Shown here: one piece after another, positions 10,470 to 18,214 of the stretch
How the letters are laid out: every line of letters starts with the position of its first letter
Position numbering within the stretch: the stretch's first letter is position 1
Assembly: GCA_039028615.1 (NCBI GenBank)
Contig: JBCCHT010000076.1
Span: forward strand, 1-25,661
Direction of reading: 5' to 3'
Length of the DNA stretch: 25,661 bases
Origin: Myxococcota bacterium
GTDB taxonomy: Bacteria > Myxococcota_A > Polyangia > Nannocystales > Nannocystaceae
The notes under the pieces: model-generated
Databases searched by the model: none
What the model saw: the letters and a program-made list of their open reading frames with translations, nothing else
Told to the model about the DNA's origin: nothing
Position numbers and translations under genes: made by a program

Positions 10470-12176
10470 TCACCCGCCTTCGGTGGCGAGGCGAGCGATG
10501 TCGGACAGCGGCTCGAGGGCGACCCGGGCGGCTGCGCGCGTCAGCGGGGTCTTGGCGACCGTCTGCGCGAGTGCCGGGCTGGCGTAGTAGTAGAAGTCGA
10601 CGAACGCCGAGCCCATCGCATTGGACTCGAGGTAGCGGTCGCGGAACCAACGCAACGCTTGCACTCGGTCGGCCCAGGGAGCCCCCCACGCGGCCGTGGC
10701 TACGAAGCAGAAGCCGTCGACCTGAGCGAATTCCTGAGCCGGGGTTCGGATCGAGTCGGAGGTGATGCTGCTGACGTTGCCGCACTCGTCCTCGTAGGCG
10801 AGTCCGATCTGATAGTCGTGATTGCCGAACAGCTCGGTGACTTCACACCATGCCGGCTCGCCCACCACGAAGGGCCCGCTGCACTGCTCGATGGGGGGAA
10901 TCTGCCGGATGGCGTTGCCCGAGTTCTCGTCGGTCAGCGGCACGTTGCCGACGCGGTAGTACAGCAGCACGTTGCTGATGTCGGCGCCGCCCAGCATCTC
11001 GGGCACCGTGAAGTGCACGCGCACGGTGTCGAAGTCGATCTCTTCGAGCTCGATCGACGGCATCCCGGGCAGCGCCTCGAGGGTGCAGGCGCCCCAGCCG
11101 GTGTCGATGGGCGGCGTCTCGCCCGTGCCCGGGCCGTGGCTGTAGACGCCGAGGCGGAAGGTCTCGTCGTTGAGCGTGTACAGGCGCAGGCGATCGCCAC
11201 CGCTGCCGTTGCTCATGCTGATCGACGCGTCGGGGGAGTGAACCTCGCCGCTGCTGCCGTCGAGCTCACCGTAGCCGGCGTAGGCATCGGTTCCGGTGAA
11301 CTGGGCCAGCTCAGGGTCGAATTCCACGGAGTAGAGCACCGAGGGCTGGCCCAGGTACTCGATCCCGAAGTTCTCCAGCCGTGGGTCGACGTAGTGGTCC
11401 CCCGCTCGCGAGAAGTCCCAGTCGGGGTTTTCGTCGTGCTCGATGTTGACCTCGACCTTCACCACCAAGTTGCCCTGACCGACGAGGTCGGCCGGGATCA
11501 CGGTGGTCACCAGCTCGGGCTGCTCGCCCATGGGGGTGGCGCTGGTGATGGCATCGAGGTCGTTGAGCTCCGACAACATCTGCACGTCCTCGTGGTCGTG
11601 CCCCTCCTCGAAGGTCGTCAGATCGTTGCGCGGCGGATAGATGGAGGTGTCGGTCTCGTGCAGCCGGCCCTTGTCCGACTGGAACGTGGCCGGCGACGGG
11701 CACGTCATCGTGTCCGCGGAAATCGTGTCGTGCTCGGACTGCGACAGCGGCCGACAGTAGAAGGGCTCGGGCGAGCTGGTGTTCTCGTGCCAGCCCAGCG
11801 ACTCGAGGTCCGAGGGATCGTCGTCGTGGAAGATGAGCGCGGGGTAGGTGCGGCCGCGGGCGTGGCCCCAGATCGGCAGCACGCCCGTACGCGGCCCGTA
11901 GGGAAACCGCCAGCTCGACAGGAAGTCCCAGCGACCCGGTCGGTTGCCGATGCCCAGGCTGCCCGTGGCCTGCGTGACCATGACCTCCTGGATGAAGTTG
12001 CCCTCGGCGTCTTCGACCCAGATCGCGATCTGAGCGTTGGAGACCGGCGTGAAGTGGATCTCTACGAGAACGTCGTCTTCATCGGCGGCCTGCGCCTCGG
12101 GGGCGGCCATGGTTCCCCCCGCCAGCACCGCGGCGGCGGCAGCGAGTCGACCTCGTCCAAGCCATGTGCAATCCAC
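10470..12176 (-). CDS. Secreted protein with DUF2271-like N-terminus, FN3-like domain and C-terminal CFI-box-CTERM domain
   Basis: Signal peptide ending AQA; QIAIWVEDAEGNFIQEVMVT; FN3-like VTELFGNHDYQIGLAYEDECGNVS; C-terminal GFCFVATAAWG...LRWFRDRYL....GSAFVDFYYYASPALA. Confidence 0.85.
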   Translation of the reverse strand: MDCTWLGRGRLAAAAAVLAGGTMAAPEAQAADEDDVLVEIHFTPVSNAQIAIWVEDAEGNFIQEVMVTQATGSLGIGNRPGRWDFLSSWRFPYGPRTGVLPIWGHARGRTYPALIFHDDDPSDLESLGWHENTSSPEPFYCRPLSQSEHDTISADTMTCPSPATFQSDKGRLHETDTSIYPPRNDLTTFEEGHDHEDVQMLSELNDLDAITSATPMGEQPELVTTVIPADLVGQGNLVVKVEVNIEHDENPDWDFSRAGDHYVDPRLENFGIEYLGQPSVLYSVEFDPELAQFTGTDAYAGYGELDGSSGEVHSPDASISMSNGSGGDRLRLYTLNDETFRLGVYSHGPGTGETPPIDTGWGACTLEALPGMPSIELEEIDFDTVRVHFTVPEMLGGADISNVLLYYRVGNVPLTDENSGNAIRQIPPIEQCSGPFVVGEPAWCEVTELFGNHDYQIGLAYEDECGNVSSITSDSIRTPAQEFAQVDGFCFVATAAWGAPWADRVQALRWFRDRYLESNAMGSAFVDFYYYASPALAQTVAKTPLTRAAARVALEPLSDIARLATEGG

Positions 12177-12309
12177 GCAGGGAGTCTACCAGAGGCCGGC
12201 CCGCGTGCCCGCCGATGCCCTCTGCGGCCCCACGGACGGGTAGGTGCGACGGATCACGCGGGCGATTTGCCCGCGAGGCTACCCTTGCGTTACCCGAGGG
12301 CAGGGCACG

Positions 12310-13887
12310 ATGACCGGCCGTACTCAGAGCTTTTGCACCAACACTGCGGTGGCGCTTTCGACGCTGCTGGTGGCGTGTGCAGGGCATCGACCCCCGCCCC
12401 GTGGAGCGGCCGCGGTCACCGTGGCGGCCGGCACTCTTCCCTCCGGCCCGGCCGAGCCCGGTCGCGGCTTGCCGATGCCGAGCCTCGACGTGTCTTGGAT
12501 GCCGCCGATGCTCACGGCCGGAGATCTCGAGGGACTGCGAGCGAAACTGCACGGTCACGGGACGGTGTCGCTGCACCTCGGCGAACGCTTCGATGGCCCC
12601 GAGTGGACCTCGCGTCTGGGTGGCTTGCTCAACGCGTTGCGCCCCGAGACGTCCGTCTTGGGTCAGCGACGCGGTCGGCCCTTTACCGGCGTGACGCTTC
12701 CGCTGCGACGACGCGGCGACGACGGGGCGCGTCCCCAGTACGACTGGGAGGGCGCGGCGTTGGCCGACTCCACGGAGGCTTCGGCCGTGTTGGTGCTCGA
12801 CGATGCCTCGGTCGATCCCGCGAGCTGGCGGGCGCTGCCGGCTCATGCGGTGGGCAGCTGCTACGAGCCGATGGCCGCGCTCGCGGCCGGGCAAGAGCAG
12901 TCGCTCGCGGAACTCGAGCCCTTCCTCGATCACGCCGACGCGGTGCTGTGGCAGGTCTACCGCCCCGCGCTGCGCCATGCGGTCACGCGTCTTTCGGCCG
13001 AGCTCGAGCCCTACGAGGCTCCGCGCACGCGCGCCGACTTCAGCGACAACGCGGCGTGGGAGCAGCACGAGTGCGGCCACGCCTATTGGCAGTTCCTGCG
13101 CAGCTATGCCGCGTGCGGTGACGAGGCCGCGAGCTGTCCGTCGGCGCCGCGAGTGTTCCTCATCGGGGGGGCGCGCATCGGTACGGCCGAGCCCAGCGTG
13201 TACGTGCCCGAGGGGTGCGCCGAGATCGTCGGCCGCGACTATGTCGGCGAGCTGCGGGCGGTGGCCAGCGAGACGGCCGAGGTCGCGCAAGAGCACCTCG
13301 CCGCGTCGTGGGTCGACCTGGCCGATCGCCTGGGTGCGGTCACCGAGGTCTACGAAGCGCTCGAGGATGTCTGTACGCCGCGACGACGTCGCTTTGCGCA
13401 ATCCGACATCGATGCGATGCGCGGGCGACTGACGGCCATCGGAGACACGCTGGCGTCCGGGCAGCTCGCGCATCCGGCCGGACGCTGGGAGTTGGTCGAG
13501 GCGCCGTTCCATGTGCCGGGCTTTGGTCCCGTGCAGCAGGTGGCGCACTACGACGCTGGCCCGGGGAGCCCCTCCGAGACGGCGGTGGCCGAGGCCCGGG
13601 CGCTGCGGCAGTTCGTCTTGCAGCGCGCGCTGTGCCGCTCGGGGCGGCCCGCGTTGCCGCTGGCGACCGCAGTGGTCGATGGCGACGACGGCAAGGTGGA
13701 GTTCTTCGGGTACTTTTTCGAAGAGGAGCTGTTCTGCGGCGAGCTGCCGCCGCTGTGGGAAGACGGCAGCAAGGCCCAGGCTCCGGCGACCAAGGCCGTC
13801 GACGCTCCTGCGCCGATCGAGGGCGGGGAGACCGAGGCTCCGGCCATCGATCCCGAACCCGCGCCGCCCGTGCTCGTTCGACCGTAG
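12310..13887 (+). CDS. Hypothetical lipoprotein
   Basis: ATG 12310; AVALSTLLVAC lipobox; 8 further Cys; Pro/Ala-rich tail. No family recognised. Confidence 0.7.
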   Translation: MTGRTQSFCTNTAVALSTLLVACAGHRPPPRGAAAVTVAAGTLPSGPAEPGRGLPMPSLDVSWMPPMLTAGDLEGLRAKLHGHGTVSLHLGERFDGPEWTSRLGGLLNALRPETSVLGQRRGRPFTGVTLPLRRRGDDGARPQYDWEGAALADSTEASAVLVLDDASVDPASWRALPAHAVGSCYEPMAALAAGQEQSLAELEPFLDHADAVLWQVYRPALRHAVTRLSAELEPYEAPRTRADFSDNAAWEQHECGHAYWQFLRSYAACGDEAASCPSAPRVFLIGGARIGTAEPSVYVPEGCAEIVGRDYVGELRAVASETAEVAQEHLAASWVDLADRLGAVTEVYEALEDVCTPRRRRFAQSDIDAMRGRLTAIGDTLASGQLAHPAGRWELVEAPFHVPGFGPVQQVAHYDAGPGSPSETAVAEARALRQFVLQRALCRSGRPALPLATAVVDGDDGKVEFFGYFFEEELFCGELPPLWEDGSKAQAPATKAVDAPAPIEGGETEAPAIDPEPAPPVLVRP

Positions 13888-14063
13888 GTGCGCGCCGCTC
13901 CGGCGGACGGATCGGTTCGATCGTCGTTCCTCGGACGAAAAATGTCGTTCGGGGCGTCAGAAGTTCCGAGGTGATCGGAGAGGGATGGATGTCGCGGGGA
14001 GGCAGGCACCTCGCGACCCGGGGACGGGCGCATTCGTGCTCGGGCCCCACGGTTTCCACTCTG

Positions 14064-14111
14064 GCGTTGGCACGTGATTTTCCGGCTCCACGTGCCAACG
14101 CTTCCTTTTGT
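14064..14111. terminator. 13-bp perfect stem-loop between convergent genes, probable terminator
   Basis: GCGTTGGCACGTG (14064-14076) / CACGTGCCAACGC (14089-14101), followed on plus by TTCCTTTTGT; lies 10 nt past the RING gene stop. Confidence 0.7.
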
Positions 14112-16715
14112 TCAGCCCTCGCGATCGGCCGGGATCAAGTCGGAGGCGGCCATCGTCGGGAAGAGGCCCTCGCGGAACAAGGCATAGATCTCGCTGCCCT
14201 CGGGCAGCTCGATGTCGCCCCGCCGCAGCAGGGCGAGCACGCCTGAGCCCTGCTCGGTCGGGATCGTGGCGGTCCGTTCGTCCGGGGCATCCGAGCCCTC
14301 GATGCGAGCCATGAACGCAGCCGGCGTCTCTTGGTCGTGCCGCACGTAGCCTTCGATCCCCGCATCGCGACGCACCAGCACCCGACGTCCGCGCGCCGCC
14401 GCGTGGCGTAGCCCCAGATCCCACATCGACATGCGGATCCCGCTGCCGAAGTACGCCAGGTGCTCCGGGCAGAGCTTCACGATCGCCGCCTTGGACGTCT
14501 CCACGTTGTTCAGCTCGAACATCCCCTTGGAGTAGGTGTCGAGCCAGTGCAACGTGTTGCGCTCGAGGTCGACGAGCAGCGGCAGGTACACGCCTTTGTC
14601 CCCGGACAGGGCGAACTTCAGTCGTACGGTGCGGGCATCGAAGTGCTTGCCGCCGACGTCCCGGCGCAGCATGAGTCCCGCGAACGCCCGGTCGAGCTGG
14701 TCGAAGCTCATCCCGGCGTAGGCGTTGATCACCATCACCGCGTAGCGCAGGCCGACTTTGCGAGCGAGATCGAGGTGGAGGTCGACGAACTCGCTGGCCC
14801 CGTCGGGGTAGGGCGCGTCTTGGAGGTCGCCCGCACTGACCGCGACCTGGTCGCCACCCGCCTCGAAGCTCAGCTGGTAGTAGGAGCAGACCCCCCGGTA
14901 TCGCCACTCGTGGTCATACAGCGCCACGGAGAGATCGAGGTCGGTCTCGCGTCCGCGCTGGGGCTGACACCAGTGCAGGAACAGCCGCAGGACGTTGCCA
15001 TCGGGGATGTCGAGGCTCGAGCCGCGGGGGAGCTGTACCGCCGACGACGAGGCCGTGCGCTCGTTGAAGGGCACCAGGACACGCCGAAGCTCGCGGTCGA
15101 GGATGACGGTGTCGAACGCAGCGAGTCGGCCGAGTCGAGCGAGCAGCTCGGCGTCGATGGCTTCGACGGCGGGTTCGATCGCCTGCGGGGGCAGGGGCGT
15201 GCGGGTATCGGATCGCGAGACTCCAGCCGTGGTCTTGCCCTTGGGCCAGAAGATGCGAATCGGCGCTGGAGAGGTACGCGTAGGCAGGTAGGTCGCCAGG
15301 GTCAGCAGCATGGGGGTGGACAGCCGCGGCACGAGGCGGGCGAAGGTGTGGGTGATGTGTGCGACCGCCCTTGCGTCGTCACCCGCGGTGCGAACCATGT
15401 GGTCGAAGCGCCGCGCGAATTCCCCGGGCCGCGTCGCGAGCAGCTCGGCCATCGCGGCTGCGTCGCCTCGGGTCACCGCGGCCTCCAGCGTGCCGTAGTA
15501 GGTCTCGAACGCGGGCGCCGGATCGCCCTGCGGCGACTTGCCGCGCACGATCGCGAAGGCCCGGGCGACCTGGGGATAGCGCTTGGCGTACTCGTGCGGG
15601 TGCAGGAACTGACCGACCCACACCCAGTACGAGCGATGGCGCAGCATGTCTTCGGCGAGGCCGTCGGGGGGGAAGCTCTCCAGAACCCCCAGCAGCGCGC
15701 GCCGTAGCTTGCGTGAGAGCTTGGCGACGGCGAAGCGGCGCTTGACGAAGGGCGTGCGGCGGATCTGGACCCACTCGCCGTCGACATGCGCCGAGGCGAG
15801 CTGACCCCGCGGGTCTTCGTCTTCGTCGCCGACTCGCGTCACGCGGTACGTCGGCTCGCCCTGGAGCGCGGGGTCGGCCTCCGAGTAGGCGGCGACGAGT
15901 CGCAGCACGTCGGTGGCGGTCTGCAGGTGAGGCACGACGGTCGGCCACACGGCGGCGAGCTCGAGCTTTCGTAGCAAGGGACCAAAGACGAGCGCGACGT
16001 TCTCCCGCACTGGGATGGTCTCGGGGACCCACGCGATGGCCTTGGTCCCGAATGCATCCACCACGGCCTTCAGGGCGGCCCGGTCGTCGGGCGACAGGGC
16101 CTGCGCTCGCGCGCACAGCTGCTCGAACAGGGGCCGGGCGCTCGCCTCGATGTCTTCACCCAAGTCGATGCGCTGGAACGTGACGGGCTCGTTACCCTTG
16201 CGTTGGTTGGGCGTGGGCTCGAAAAACGGGGAGTCCTGGTCGACATGGCGCTCACACACGGGGCAGGCGCTGTAGTTGCTGCCGTCGAAGCAGTCGTCGC
16301 ACACCACGTGCTGACAGGGCTGCAGCACGTGGGTGGTGCCGACCCGGTCGCAGAACAAGCACGGCTGGTCCGGCGCCTGGGCAAAGTGCACGAGCACCTT
16401 CTTGATCCACAGCTGCAGCGTGTTCTTGGGGACCTTGCTCGGGAACTTTCGAAATAGCGGGACGTGCTCTTGGTTGCCGCCCTTGGCCGCGGCCAGCGTC
16501 TGTGCGATCCACTTTTGTTGCTGGGCGAAGGCGGCGAGGTTGCGCCGAGACAGGCGGTCCCGCAGGCGGCTGGACATGGCGTAGCCCAGCTCGGCCAGCT
16601 CGAGGTCGGCGACACGGAGGTAGCGGTCTTCGAGGGGCTCGGCTCTGGCGGGCAAGAACACCAGGCCCCGCCGCTGCAGCAGGACCGTCCGGAGCGCGAG
16701 GTCCTCGGGGGTCAC
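14112..16715 (-). CDS. MXAN_6230/SCO0854-like protein: prokaryotic C3HC4 RING finger + large helical region + TerD-like C-terminal domain
   Basis: CLFC-x11-CQHVVCDDC-x8-CPVC at aa 119-154; HVPLFRKFP and RPGEFARRFD motifs; TerD-like LRLFLHW...TDLDLSVALYD...SAGDLQDAP..GASEFVDLHL...VINAYAGMSFDQL. Confidence 0.88.
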   Translation of the reverse strand: MTPEDLALRTVLLQRRGLVFLPARAEPLEDRYLRVADLELAELGYAMSSRLRDRLSRRNLAAFAQQQKWIAQTLAAAKGGNQEHVPLFRKFPSKVPKNTLQLWIKKVLVHFAQAPDQPCLFCDRVGTTHVLQPCQHVVCDDCFDGSNYSACPVCERHVDQDSPFFEPTPNQRKGNEPVTFQRIDLGEDIEASARPLFEQLCARAQALSPDDRAALKAVVDAFGTKAIAWVPETIPVRENVALVFGPLLRKLELAAVWPTVVPHLQTATDVLRLVAAYSEADPALQGEPTYRVTRVGDEDEDPRGQLASAHVDGEWVQIRRTPFVKRRFAVAKLSRKLRRALLGVLESFPPDGLAEDMLRHRSYWVWVGQFLHPHEYAKRYPQVARAFAIVRGKSPQGDPAPAFETYYGTLEAAVTRGDAAAMAELLATRPGEFARRFDHMVRTAGDDARAVAHITHTFARLVPRLSTPMLLTLATYLPTRTSPAPIRIFWPKGKTTAGVSRSDTRTPLPPQAIEPAVEAIDAELLARLGRLAAFDTVILDRELRRVLVPFNERTASSSAVQLPRGSSLDIPDGNVLRLFLHWCQPQRGRETDLDLSVALYDHEWRYRGVCSYYQLSFEAGGDQVAVSAGDLQDAPYPDGASEFVDLHLDLARKVGLRYAVMVINAYAGMSFDQLDRAFAGLMLRRDVGGKHFDARTVRLKFALSGDKGVYLPLLVDLERNTLHWLDTYSKGMFELNNVETSKAAIVKLCPEHLAYFGSGIRMSMWDLGLRHAAARGRRVLVRRDAGIEGYVRHDQETPAAFMARIEGSDAPDERTATIPTEQGSGVLALLRRGDIELPEGSEIYALFREGLFPTMAASDLIPADREG

Positions 16716-16764
16716 GTCGATGATGGTCGCACGGACACCGCCGCGGCAGACGACACCGCCTGAA

Positions 16765-16870
16765 CGAGGACAACGGACGAGGGCAAGGGCCCGCCGTCCG
16801 TTGGCAATGAAGGAAATCGACCGAGCTGGGGACCTAGAAAGTTAGAGAAGGAAGCCCGGTCTGAGCCTTC
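16765..16870 (-). ncRNA. Candidate ~100-nt structured RNA (or cis-regulatory leader) upstream of the RING-TerD gene
   Basis: Minus strand: GAAGG-ctca-GACCGGGCT-[tccttctctaactttctaggtcccc]-AGCTCGGTC-gattt-CCTTC, then a 14-bp hairpin (16803-16771). A promoter-like sequence puts +1 at about 16870. No expression data. Confidence 0.55.
16771..16803 (-). terminator. GC-rich hairpin, possible terminator/attenuator
   Basis: CAACGGACGG-c-GGGC-cctt-GCCC-TCGTCCGTTG followed by a weak pyrimidine run TCCTCGTTC. Confidence 0.5.
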
Positions 16871-16876
16871 GCTCCG

Positions 16877-16906
16877 ATCATCTCACGCGCAGGAGCGGAG
16901 CGCCAA
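16877..16906 (-). promoter_or_regulatory. Candidate sigma70-type promoter for the structured RNA
   Basis: TTGGCG (16906-16901), 18 nt, then GATGAT (16882-16877) with an extended-10 TG. Confidence 0.4.
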
Positions 16907-16933
16907 CGGACTGTCTTGGGTCGACGGTGGGCG

Positions 16934-17638
16934 CTACTCGAGCAGCAGCATCCCGCGGCTGAGCTCGCTGCTCGAGTCGGTGGTGTTCATGGCGGCCAGC
17001 AGCCGCTCGCTCGACACGAGCCAAGGCTGATAGTCGGCGTTGACGTCGAGCACGAACACCAGGTCCTCGTCCTCGAGGTAGCCGCCGATGGGAGAGTGGT
17101 GACCGCCGCCTTCCCGGAACAGCGGCCCCCGCAGGAAGTTGATGATGTAGCGGCGCTCGGGGTCGTTGCTGCGGCGCATATGCTCGCGGAACTCGTCGGT
17201 GGAGAGGTCGCGCAGCACGGTGACGGTGCGACCCGTCTTGGCACGCGCAATCTCGGCGAGCTCATCGAGGGTCAAGCCGGGCAGGCACTGCCCGCTCCAG
17301 CAATAACCCGTGCCTTCGAGCACCGTGTCCGGCGTCGCGTCGGCGTCGAGCTTCCAGGAGGTCATCGCATTGGCGACGCTGGTCGGCCCGCAGTACGAGA
17401 CCTTGGGCTGAAACTGCAGGGCCTCGGGGCCATAGGTCGCGGCGACGGGCAGCTGCCACGCGCGTGCGATGAGGGCCTCGTCCTGGTACGCGGGCGTCGA
17501 CTTGATCGACACCACATCGTAGGTCTTGGGCGCGAGCGCGATGCGGGCGTAGAGGAACAGCCCGCCGAGCAACACGATGATCGCCAGCAGGGCGAGGCCC
17601 AGGCGTTTGAGCCATGGGCTGCGAGGCGCGTCGACCAT
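16934..17638 (-). CDS. Phytochelatin synthase family protein (papain-like, peptidase C83), N-terminally anchored/exported
   Basis: FQPKVSYCGPTS (Gln/Cys), GLTLDELA, GGHHSPIGGY (His), VLDVN (Asp), YQPWLVS, SRGMLLL; N-terminal hydrophobic helix. Confidence 0.9.
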   Translation of the reverse strand: MVDAPRSPWLKRLGLALLAIIVLLGGLFLYARIALAPKTYDVVSIKSTPAYQDEALIARAWQLPVAATYGPEALQFQPKVSYCGPTSVANAMTSWKLDADATPDTVLEGTGYCWSGQCLPGLTLDELAEIARAKTGRTVTVLRDLSTDEFREHMRRSNDPERRYIINFLRGPLFREGGGHHSPIGGYLEDEDLVFVLDVNADYQPWLVSSERLLAAMNTTDSSSELSRGMLLLE

Positions 17639-17692
17639 GGAACCACGCTGTCATCGGCCCGTCGCGCGGGTCAATACGCCATACTCTCGGTC

Positions 17693-18214
17693 ATGTCCGA
17701 CGCCGCTCCCGCCAGCCCGTGCATCGTTCGAAGTCGCGCGAAATCGACCGACGATGCGATGCACATCAGCCACCCGCTCAACGATCGCTCGTCGATCTTC
17801 ATGACCCGCTTGAGCGATCCCACCGGGTTGACCCACATCGGCGTCTCGCTCGCCCGCATCCCGCCCGGTCGCGAGAGCTTCTCGATGCATGTGCACACGA
17901 TCCAAGAGGAGTGGATCTTCGTGCTCGAAGGTCAGGGGCACGTGCGGCTGAACGACGAAGACCACCCGATTGGCCCGGGGGACTTCGTGGGCTTTCCTCC
18001 CGGCGGTCCCGCGCACGTGGTCCGCAACACCTCCGACGCGGACCTGGTGTTCCTGCAAGGCGGTGACCGTCGCACGGGCGATCGCGGCCACTTCCCCGAG
18101 CTGGGCATGGTGGGCTACCAGGACGACGAGGGGCACATGGCGTTCATCGACGCCGAACACGTGAAGCGCTTGCCCTTCACCGCGTGGATGGTCGCGGCGC
18201 AGAAGCAGTCGTAG
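17693..18214 (+). CDS. Cupin domain protein
   Basis: PPGRESFSMHVHTIQEEWIFVLEGQG and GDFVGFPPGGPAHVVRNTS metal-binding motifs. Start is ATG 17693; the ORF-track extension overlaps the PCS gene. Confidence 0.9.
   Translation: MSDAAPASPCIVRSRAKSTDDAMHISHPLNDRSSIFMTRLSDPTGLTHIGVSLARIPPGRESFSMHVHTIQEEWIFVLEGQGHVRLNDEDHPIGPGDFVGFPPGGPAHVVRNTSDADLVFLQGGDRRTGDRGHFPELGMVGYQDDEGHMAFIDAEHVKRLPFTAWMVAAQKQS

Follow-up and report, generated by a model that had tools for sequence, protein, structure and literature searches.

The stretch analysed here, referred to as the window, is one whole contig of 25,661 nucleotides (JBCCHT010000076.1) from a 12.3-Mb, 68% GC genome of a Myxococcota bacterium, which among named organisms is closest to myxobacteria such as Nannocystis and Plesiocystis. 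Its minus strand carries a gene of the MXAN_6230/SCO0854 family, encoding a protein with a RING finger and a TerD-fold domain. The 218-nt gap between this RING-TerD gene and an upstream gene for phytochelatin synthase (a profile match) contains a small folded RNA element (Table 1). The same type of folded RNA adjoins almost every copy of this widespread bacterial and phage gene. The RNA and the protein probably form a divergent Ro60/Y RNA pair, in which a short RNA made from its own promoter would bind the outer face of the Ro60-like ring encoded next door. An earlier model-made reading of the DNA, the sequence-only reading, had proposed an RNA-protein system at this site. The proposal has held up: the RNA is conserved, covaries and is tied to the protein family, its long forms carry the tRNA-like module of the Y RNA YrlA, and the protein has a predicted Ro60 fold.

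The nested stem, the loop, the promoter-like sequence, the hairpin and a TG-C-GACCAT element 7 nt before the GTG of the RING-TerD gene were all located where that reading had placed them. The arms of stem 2 are GACCGGGCT and AGCTCGGTC, and the 25-nt loop contains 20 pyrimidines and TCTA twice. The fold of positions 16870-16770 has a z-score of -5.11, with 0/200 shuffled sequences folding as well. The 71-nt core by itself reaches -1.84 (10/200 shuffles as good) and the entire gap -1.15; as these values are modest, folding energy alone is weak evidence and the proof rests on comparison. The conserved core is 55-75 nt, shorter than the ~100 nt proposed, the downstream hairpin being a variable, terminator-like part. 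A scan of the window against Rfam was empty at gathering and at E up to 10, in line with the suspicion that no named family was involved, and the RNA class is not in Rfam 15. ARAGORN made no tRNA- or tmRNA-type call in the window. BLASTN of the gap against the window's genome gave no second similar copy, and the copy beside a paralogue of the gene was found only by model or pattern.

Table 1. Features of the RNA element and of the RING-TerD gene in the window (positions of the whole stretch)
Feature	Position	Strand	Basis
MXAN_6230/SCO0854-family protein, 867 aa, predicted divergent Ro60	14112..16715	-	NF041916 match, AF2 (AlphaFold2) model, fold searches
Short form of the Y-like RNA; core of 62 nt with stem 1, a 4x5 internal loop, stem 2 and a variable loop	16809..16870	-	model R1, 70.8 bits (window copy is part of the model seed)
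Stem 1, 5′ arm GAAGG, partner 16813-16809	16866..16870	-	G8-C and G9-C nearly invariant; positions 5-7 covary
Internal loop, 5′ side CTCA, opposite GATTT at 16818-16814; predicted protein-recognition site	16862..16865	-	C invariant, T 59/61
Stem 2, 5′ arm, partner 16827-16819	16853..16861	-	covariation in seed and independent sets
CUUCCUUC(U) motif, end of stem 2 and loop start; same place as YrlA YUAY	16846..16854	-	homologue counts
14-bp hairpin, terminator-like, weak U-tail	16771..16803	-	folding; tail 4 T in 8
Likely promoter of the RNA, TTGGCG-N18-GATGAT with TG-N extension	16877..16906	-	-10 position conserved in 40/59 homologous copies; strict scan negative
RING finger, aa 119-164, optional in family	16224..16361	-	PF14447, E 6.9e-19
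Predicted TROVE/HEAT-like ring, aa ~177-530; conserved TATDVLR and R335/R338/R339	15126..16187	-	
TerD-fold domain, aa 569-752, inserted in vWA-like domain	14460..15011	-	
Split vWA-like domain, aa 533 to ~560 and 753-865, flanking TerD insert; D540 kept, S-x-S lost	14121..15119	-	structural alignments

A common design is present upstream of six homologue loci and of most close homologues examined. It consists of a 5-bp stem, an internal loop with CTCA-type and GATTT-type sides, a 9-bp stem, TCCTTC and a variable loop. Seventeen short copies, chosen by a descriptor requiring pairing, formed the seed of a model, R1. They were aligned on sequence alone with gap-free arms, two-sided changes were found at 7 of the 14 pairs, and RNAalifold recovered the same stems. 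Since the seed had been chosen for pairing, R1 was tested blind on independent loci, of which one (L184) is closely related to seed loci. The model matched 60/79 metagenome loci, the 19 misses lacking the gene start, and all 57 of those having the N-terminus and at least 300 nt upstream, as well as 57/64 viral loci. All 160 matches in the two sets are co-oriented with the gene. At the Massilia locus, one of the six with the common design, two full-length family genes of Massilia rubra stand in tandem (L005:1407-6586) and share a single RNA copy in front of the first.

In alignments fitted to R1, two-sided changes occur at 11 of the 14 pairs in the metagenome set and at 12 of the 14 in the viral set, and 97.9% and 94.0% of cells are paired, compared with 39-56% when the partners are slid. 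GGCU, CUUCCUUC, AG and the final U..CC are invariant or nearly so in homologous copies. TCCTTC is present in 61/61 and 60/61 distinct copies, which were partly selected for it by the model, and phage copies carry TACTTC variants. The sequence-only reading had expected a conserved CCTTC...TCTA loop with covarying stems; TCCTTC and the covariation were recovered, but a double TCTA is seen in just 2/61 and 7/61 distinct homologous copies. What is conserved in the loop is CUUCCUUCU rather than TCTA.

The reach of R1 extends to named plasmid and phage loci from Actinomycetota, Bacillota, Pseudomonadota and Deinococcota, 8 of 12 being matched at E<0.01 (three in Streptomyces and one each in Bacillus, Vibrio, Variovorax, Deinococcus and a Rhodococcus phage). 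At the other four, similar elements were recognised by descriptor, partial Rfam match or eye. A search of 150 genomes of the phylum returned seven matches in five genomes, all adjoining family genes, although six of the seven are seed copies or tandem neighbours of one. With filters off, R1 matched 0/20 TROVE or TerD-only loci, which have their own Y-like RNAs with different stems. A sequence-only pattern without any pairing rule found exactly two sites in the window's genome, one beside each paralogue, and the second of these copies is outside the R1 seed.

The protein is a member of NCBIfam NF041916, scoring 932.6 bits against a curated cut-off of 600. Its AF2 model has a predicted local distance difference test (pLDDT) score of 95 and a predicted template modelling (pTM) score of 0.93, and its helical region and C-terminus are predicted to adopt the Ro60 fold. 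In a fold search with the whole model, TerD-fold entries were followed by all seven Ro60 entries, with 329-375 residues aligned over aa ~177-865; Foldseek gave E 1.3e-3 and a probability of 1.00 for Ro60 2nvo. Three Ro60 representatives ranked first of 48,161 when the helical part was searched alone, and Ro60, Ku80 vWA and integrin I domains align to aa 533..865. Both the HEAT-repeat (TROVE) ring and the C-terminal vWA domain that closes the ring in Ro60 are seen in the predicted model. The comparison of the helical region with TROVE/Ro60, proposed in the sequence-only reading, is positive in these fold searches but not in HHalign (probability 1.5%) or in Foldseek with the helical part alone, which gave no match at E up to 0.001 and no Ro60 among the matches listed.

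No sequence match to PF05731 TROVE or PF25045 vWA_Ro60 was obtained. In the weak HHalign segment, TATDVLR...R-R is aligned with RTGTHLF...WGR..R, which is conserved in TROVE, and the conserved arginines are only suggestive of outer-surface contacts with a Y RNA. The metal ion-dependent adhesion site (MIDAS) D-x-S-x-S is degenerate: D540 is kept in 91/102 homologues and followed by x-x-L, while D.S.S is found in 15/16 TROVE proteins. A sequence search of PDB returned RING matches only, one designed repeat protein being disregarded, and the ESM Atlas returned only the family itself and no TROVE cluster. The RING finger is optional in the family, its pattern being present in 58/102 diverse homologues.

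The RNA also exists in long forms of ~120-140 nt, in which the variable loop is replaced by a T arm, a closed acceptor stem and a D arm. This permuted tRNA-like module is absent from the window copy. Chen et al. (PMC4201824) define YrlA by such a module, a 5′ GNCGAAN(0-1)G motif, YUAY after the stem and a same-strand location near Ro60. Matches of the long forms to Rfam YrlA (RF02553) are either confined to positions 23-86 or weak, and all are below gathering; the best scores 42.3 bits (E 3e-6) against a gathering score of 69 bits. At least 25 partial YrlA matches are among those listed, many from near-identical phages. The 5′ motif was found in 1/61 and 0/61 copies. A GNCGA on the 3′ strand was considered as the Ro site and rejected, as it belongs to stem 2 and is present in 33/61 but merely 6/61 copies. 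By its placement, the UUCC/UUAC motif appears to hold the YUAY position of YrlA. A terminal stem with an internal loop, encoded near a Ro60-like gene on the same strand, is the general pattern of bacterial Y RNAs and is found here; one long copy (locus L026) lies on the opposite strand.

From promoter spacing, terminators and copy positions, the element behaves like a separate small RNA. TAnnnT ends 6-9 nt before the stem in 40/59 bacterial copies, compared with at most three at any other distance, and the GATGAT of the window ends 6 nt before it; TAnnnT is not enriched in the viral set, where copies stand in arrays. A promoter before the stem had been predicted, and its sequence is present with a conserved -10 spacing, but a strict consensus scan of the window gave no sigma-70 promoter. 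Likewise, the predicted 14-bp hairpin is present but was not called as a terminator and has 4 T in 8 in its tail; a hairpin or U-tract follows 45/62 homologous copies. The same layout, with the promoter in front and the hairpin or U-tract behind, would suit a cis-acting 5′ leader, on which the protein binds its nascent mRNA and favours termination or blocks translation, the small RNA being a by-product. The metagenome matches fit such a leader, 63/64 being upstream of the gene and most within 70 nt of the start. In the window, a 10-bp long-range stem of 16911-16902 with 16805-16796 (minus strand) can compete with the hairpin; it is possible in a transcript that reads through from the phytochelatin-synthase gene, where it would tie up the 5′ arm of the hairpin. 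However, 40/96 viral matches are 3′ of the gene, as are copies in Vibrio, Variovorax, one Streptomyces and the Rhodococcus phage. The second copy in the window's genome directly follows the stop codon of a RING-less paralogue of 690 aa (G000:C27:9426-11610) and precedes a perfect intrinsic terminator. Copies are often in tandem, each with its own TTGACA-type promoter, and attenuation needs no tRNA module. The RNA had been proposed as either a ligand or an autoregulatory target; the downstream and tandem copies favour the ligand, and a purely autoregulatory leader is unlikely. A cis-leader role can coexist with the Ro60/Y RNA pair.

Another explanation accepts the RNA and the gene as partners but sees in the protein no relative of Ro60, only generic HEAT repeats in an independent TerD-linked ribonucleoprotein (RNP) with a borrowed tRNA-mimic module. 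The identity to Ro60 of 7-14%, the HHalign value, the failure of Foldseek to find Ro60 with the domain alone and the loss of both MIDAS and GNCGAA all speak for it and weigh against kinship with Ro60. Against it, the match takes in the helical ring and the vWA, ordered as in Ro60, and covers ~70% of the Ro60 chain, whereas other helical matches of similar root-mean-square deviation align merely ~60-120 residues. The HHalign segment falls on the conserved TROVE motif and the RNA independently resembles YrlA; this explanation is judged quite improbable. It is harder still to credit that the element acts at the DNA level, as a repeat, a protein-binding site or an anti-Shine-Dalgarno mimic, with no functional RNA ligand. 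Tandem arrays do occur, and GGAGG/CCTCC and TCCTTC are similar to Shine-Dalgarno and anti-Shine-Dalgarno sequences. However, the G-U pairs, compensatory changes, strict strand polarity, positioned -10, tRNA-like inserts and TACTTC variants point to selection at the RNA level, and the window's genome has two copies only, both at family genes.

For the divergent Ro60/Y RNA pair, binding of the RNA by the protein is very likely. The protein would recognise this RNA class by the double stem, with GGCU invariant in the internal loop, and by CUUCCUUC, which together would take the place of the YrlA GNCGAA; the CTCA side of the internal loop is the predicted protein-recognition site, by its position relative to the Ro60 sites of Y RNAs. 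The bound RNA would gate the ring channel and tether partners, as in known Ro60 systems; tethering to polynucleotide phosphorylase (PNPase) is established for the Ro60 of Deinococcus, Salmonella and phage phiLo (PMC4201824; PMC12135203). Whether gating or tethering takes place here in RNA surveillance is evenly balanced. In long copies, the permuted tRNA module may recruit tRNA-processing or repair enzymes or serve as a decoy, and the short copy of the window may be a gate or tether only. With the vWA metal site lost, the inserted TerD domain may have taken its place as a ligand or stress sensor, and the RING, where present, may be a protein-interaction adaptor. The most likely use would be to deal with tRNA-like RNA that is damaged or misfolded, in times of stress or phage conflict, with feedback attenuation through the upstream copy as a possible added layer. 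A wider proposal, put forward tentatively and with slightly less than even confidence, is a second, sequence-invisible Ro60 lineage. It would have its own Y RNA code (GGCU/CUUCCUUC), a TerD sensor for the vWA metal site and often a RING, with paralogues matched to orthogonal Y RNA classes. In large phages it would lie inside the tRNA arrays and, as a ligand-gated RNP, shield tRNA from host nucleases or repair it.

Beyond four loci, family genes have no conserved bacterial neighbours, and the RNA and gene can therefore be regarded as a two-part module. In viruses, tRNA genes are within ~3 kb at 23 of the 41 loci scanned (of 64, with related loci included and no control set). A Thg1 gene adjoins the family gene in 11 related phage loci, a CCA-adding enzyme is encoded beside it in phage RpAliso, and an RtcR is near the Variovorax copy. 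Just upstream of the family gene of Ruegeria phage RpAliso (L075:1059-1347) there are a permuted tmRNA and YrlA-type modules that are absent from the features of the record.

In the window, a CFI-box-CTERM domain in 10470-12176 is the only Pfam or PADLOC family matched by the same-strand open reading frames (ORFs) downstream at 10470-14098 (-), and these ORFs were not seen as conserved neighbours of family genes. The phytochelatin-synthase neighbour does not appear to be conserved, as no such cluster is among the 22 neighbour-cluster representatives scanned, the window's own locus being outside the clustering. No ter gene (terA-F/Z) was found in the scanned window ORFs or in those representatives, and PADLOC 2.0 anti-phage profiles matched 0/9 proteins. 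A plus-strand ORF at 16916-18214 with a cupin domain is antisense to the phytochelatin-synthase gene at 16934-17638 (-); as the cupin part (aa 312-380) is outside the overlap, its true start is probably later.

Two true TROVE genes are also present in the window's genome, and the Y-like RNAs that accompany each have a different stem type. One such locus (L037:597-735, on contig C44), together with L051 and L052, represents a third Y-like class with a GCAGTGAG internal loop and a TTACTTC motif. Its long and short forms stand in tandem before a divergent TROVE subtype with DNSGSA, which has no Pfam vWA_Ro60 match. At L052 no YrlA match was found at E up to 5, the sole match being a tRNA spanning tandem copies. 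At the other (L038, G000:C16:126151-129351), a classical rsr gene is behind an apparent RtcR-type activator, judged by eye, and a downstream YrlA scores 61.3 bits, below the Rfam gathering score. Elsewhere in myxobacterial genomes (L039, L041), TROVE genes lie amid long arrays of elements resembling tRNA and YrlA, whose tandem permuted copies are mis-called by Rfam as tRNAs with long inserts. As Y-like RNAs of at least three classes accompany different Ro60-type proteins in this one genome, a specificity code is directly testable.

The family comprises 1,025 clusters at 50% identity (E up to 1e-30). Of 401 genomes sampled in the phylum, 27 have it at E<=1e-18 and 36 at E<=0.001, and any TROVE match is found in 16/201, making the family about as common as canonical TROVE in the phylum sample. 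Surveys of bacterial Ro60 and Y RNAs take TROVE annotations and the YrlA model as their starting points, and neither picks up this family. In the literature no account was found that ties this family or TerD fusions to Ro60/Y RNA, though mention in reviews, comparative papers or supplements is possible; one paper, in the part available, treats Ro60 and TerD separately (PMC7824862). If the proposed pairing is true, a large hypothetical family of bacteria, plasmids and phages would gain a fold, a ligand and a pathway, Rfam would gain a new RNA class, and Ter stress sensing would be joined to RNA surveillance. For structural work, the natural form of 55-62 nt would offer a minimal Y RNA.

Several features are shared with the bacterial Ro60 (Rsr) systems of YrlA, YrlB and Yrn1 (PMC4201824). 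There, too, the RNA genes share the strand of the protein gene and are no more than a few kb from it, and often two kinds occur per locus, one with and one without the tRNA module. The long closing stem with an internal loop, the order of T arm, closed acceptor stem and D arm, the YUAY-like motif right after the stem, the predicted HEAT ring with vWA and the occurrence in phages are likewise common to both. Unlike YrlA, the family RNA has no 5′ GNCGAAN(0-1)G but an invariant GGCU and CUUCCUUC, and it scores below the YrlA gathering threshold. Unlike Ro60, the protein has no TROVE sequence match; it has TerD inside vWA, an extra N-terminal domain, an optional RING and a degenerate MIDAS, and its loci are without the conserved RtcB/RtcR operon. 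The Thermus phage phiLo Ro60 with Yrl1 and Yrl2 (PDB 9l5y) is described in the available text of PMC12135203 as HEAT repeats and vWA, with no mention there of TerD or RING, and its RNAs use the CGAA motif, unlike the family RNA. The description of NF041916 and Pfam Prok-RING_4 names the RING only, with no RNA partner or Ro60 fold, whereas RING-less relatives carry the same RNA. In contrast to the TerD of Ter stress systems, as treated in the available part of PMC7824862, TerD is here a fused insert, and no further Ter gene turned up among the conserved neighbours. As the protein lacks the TROVE sequence and MIDAS and the RNA the YrlA score and motif, the pair would be a variant that works like Ro60 and its Y RNA.
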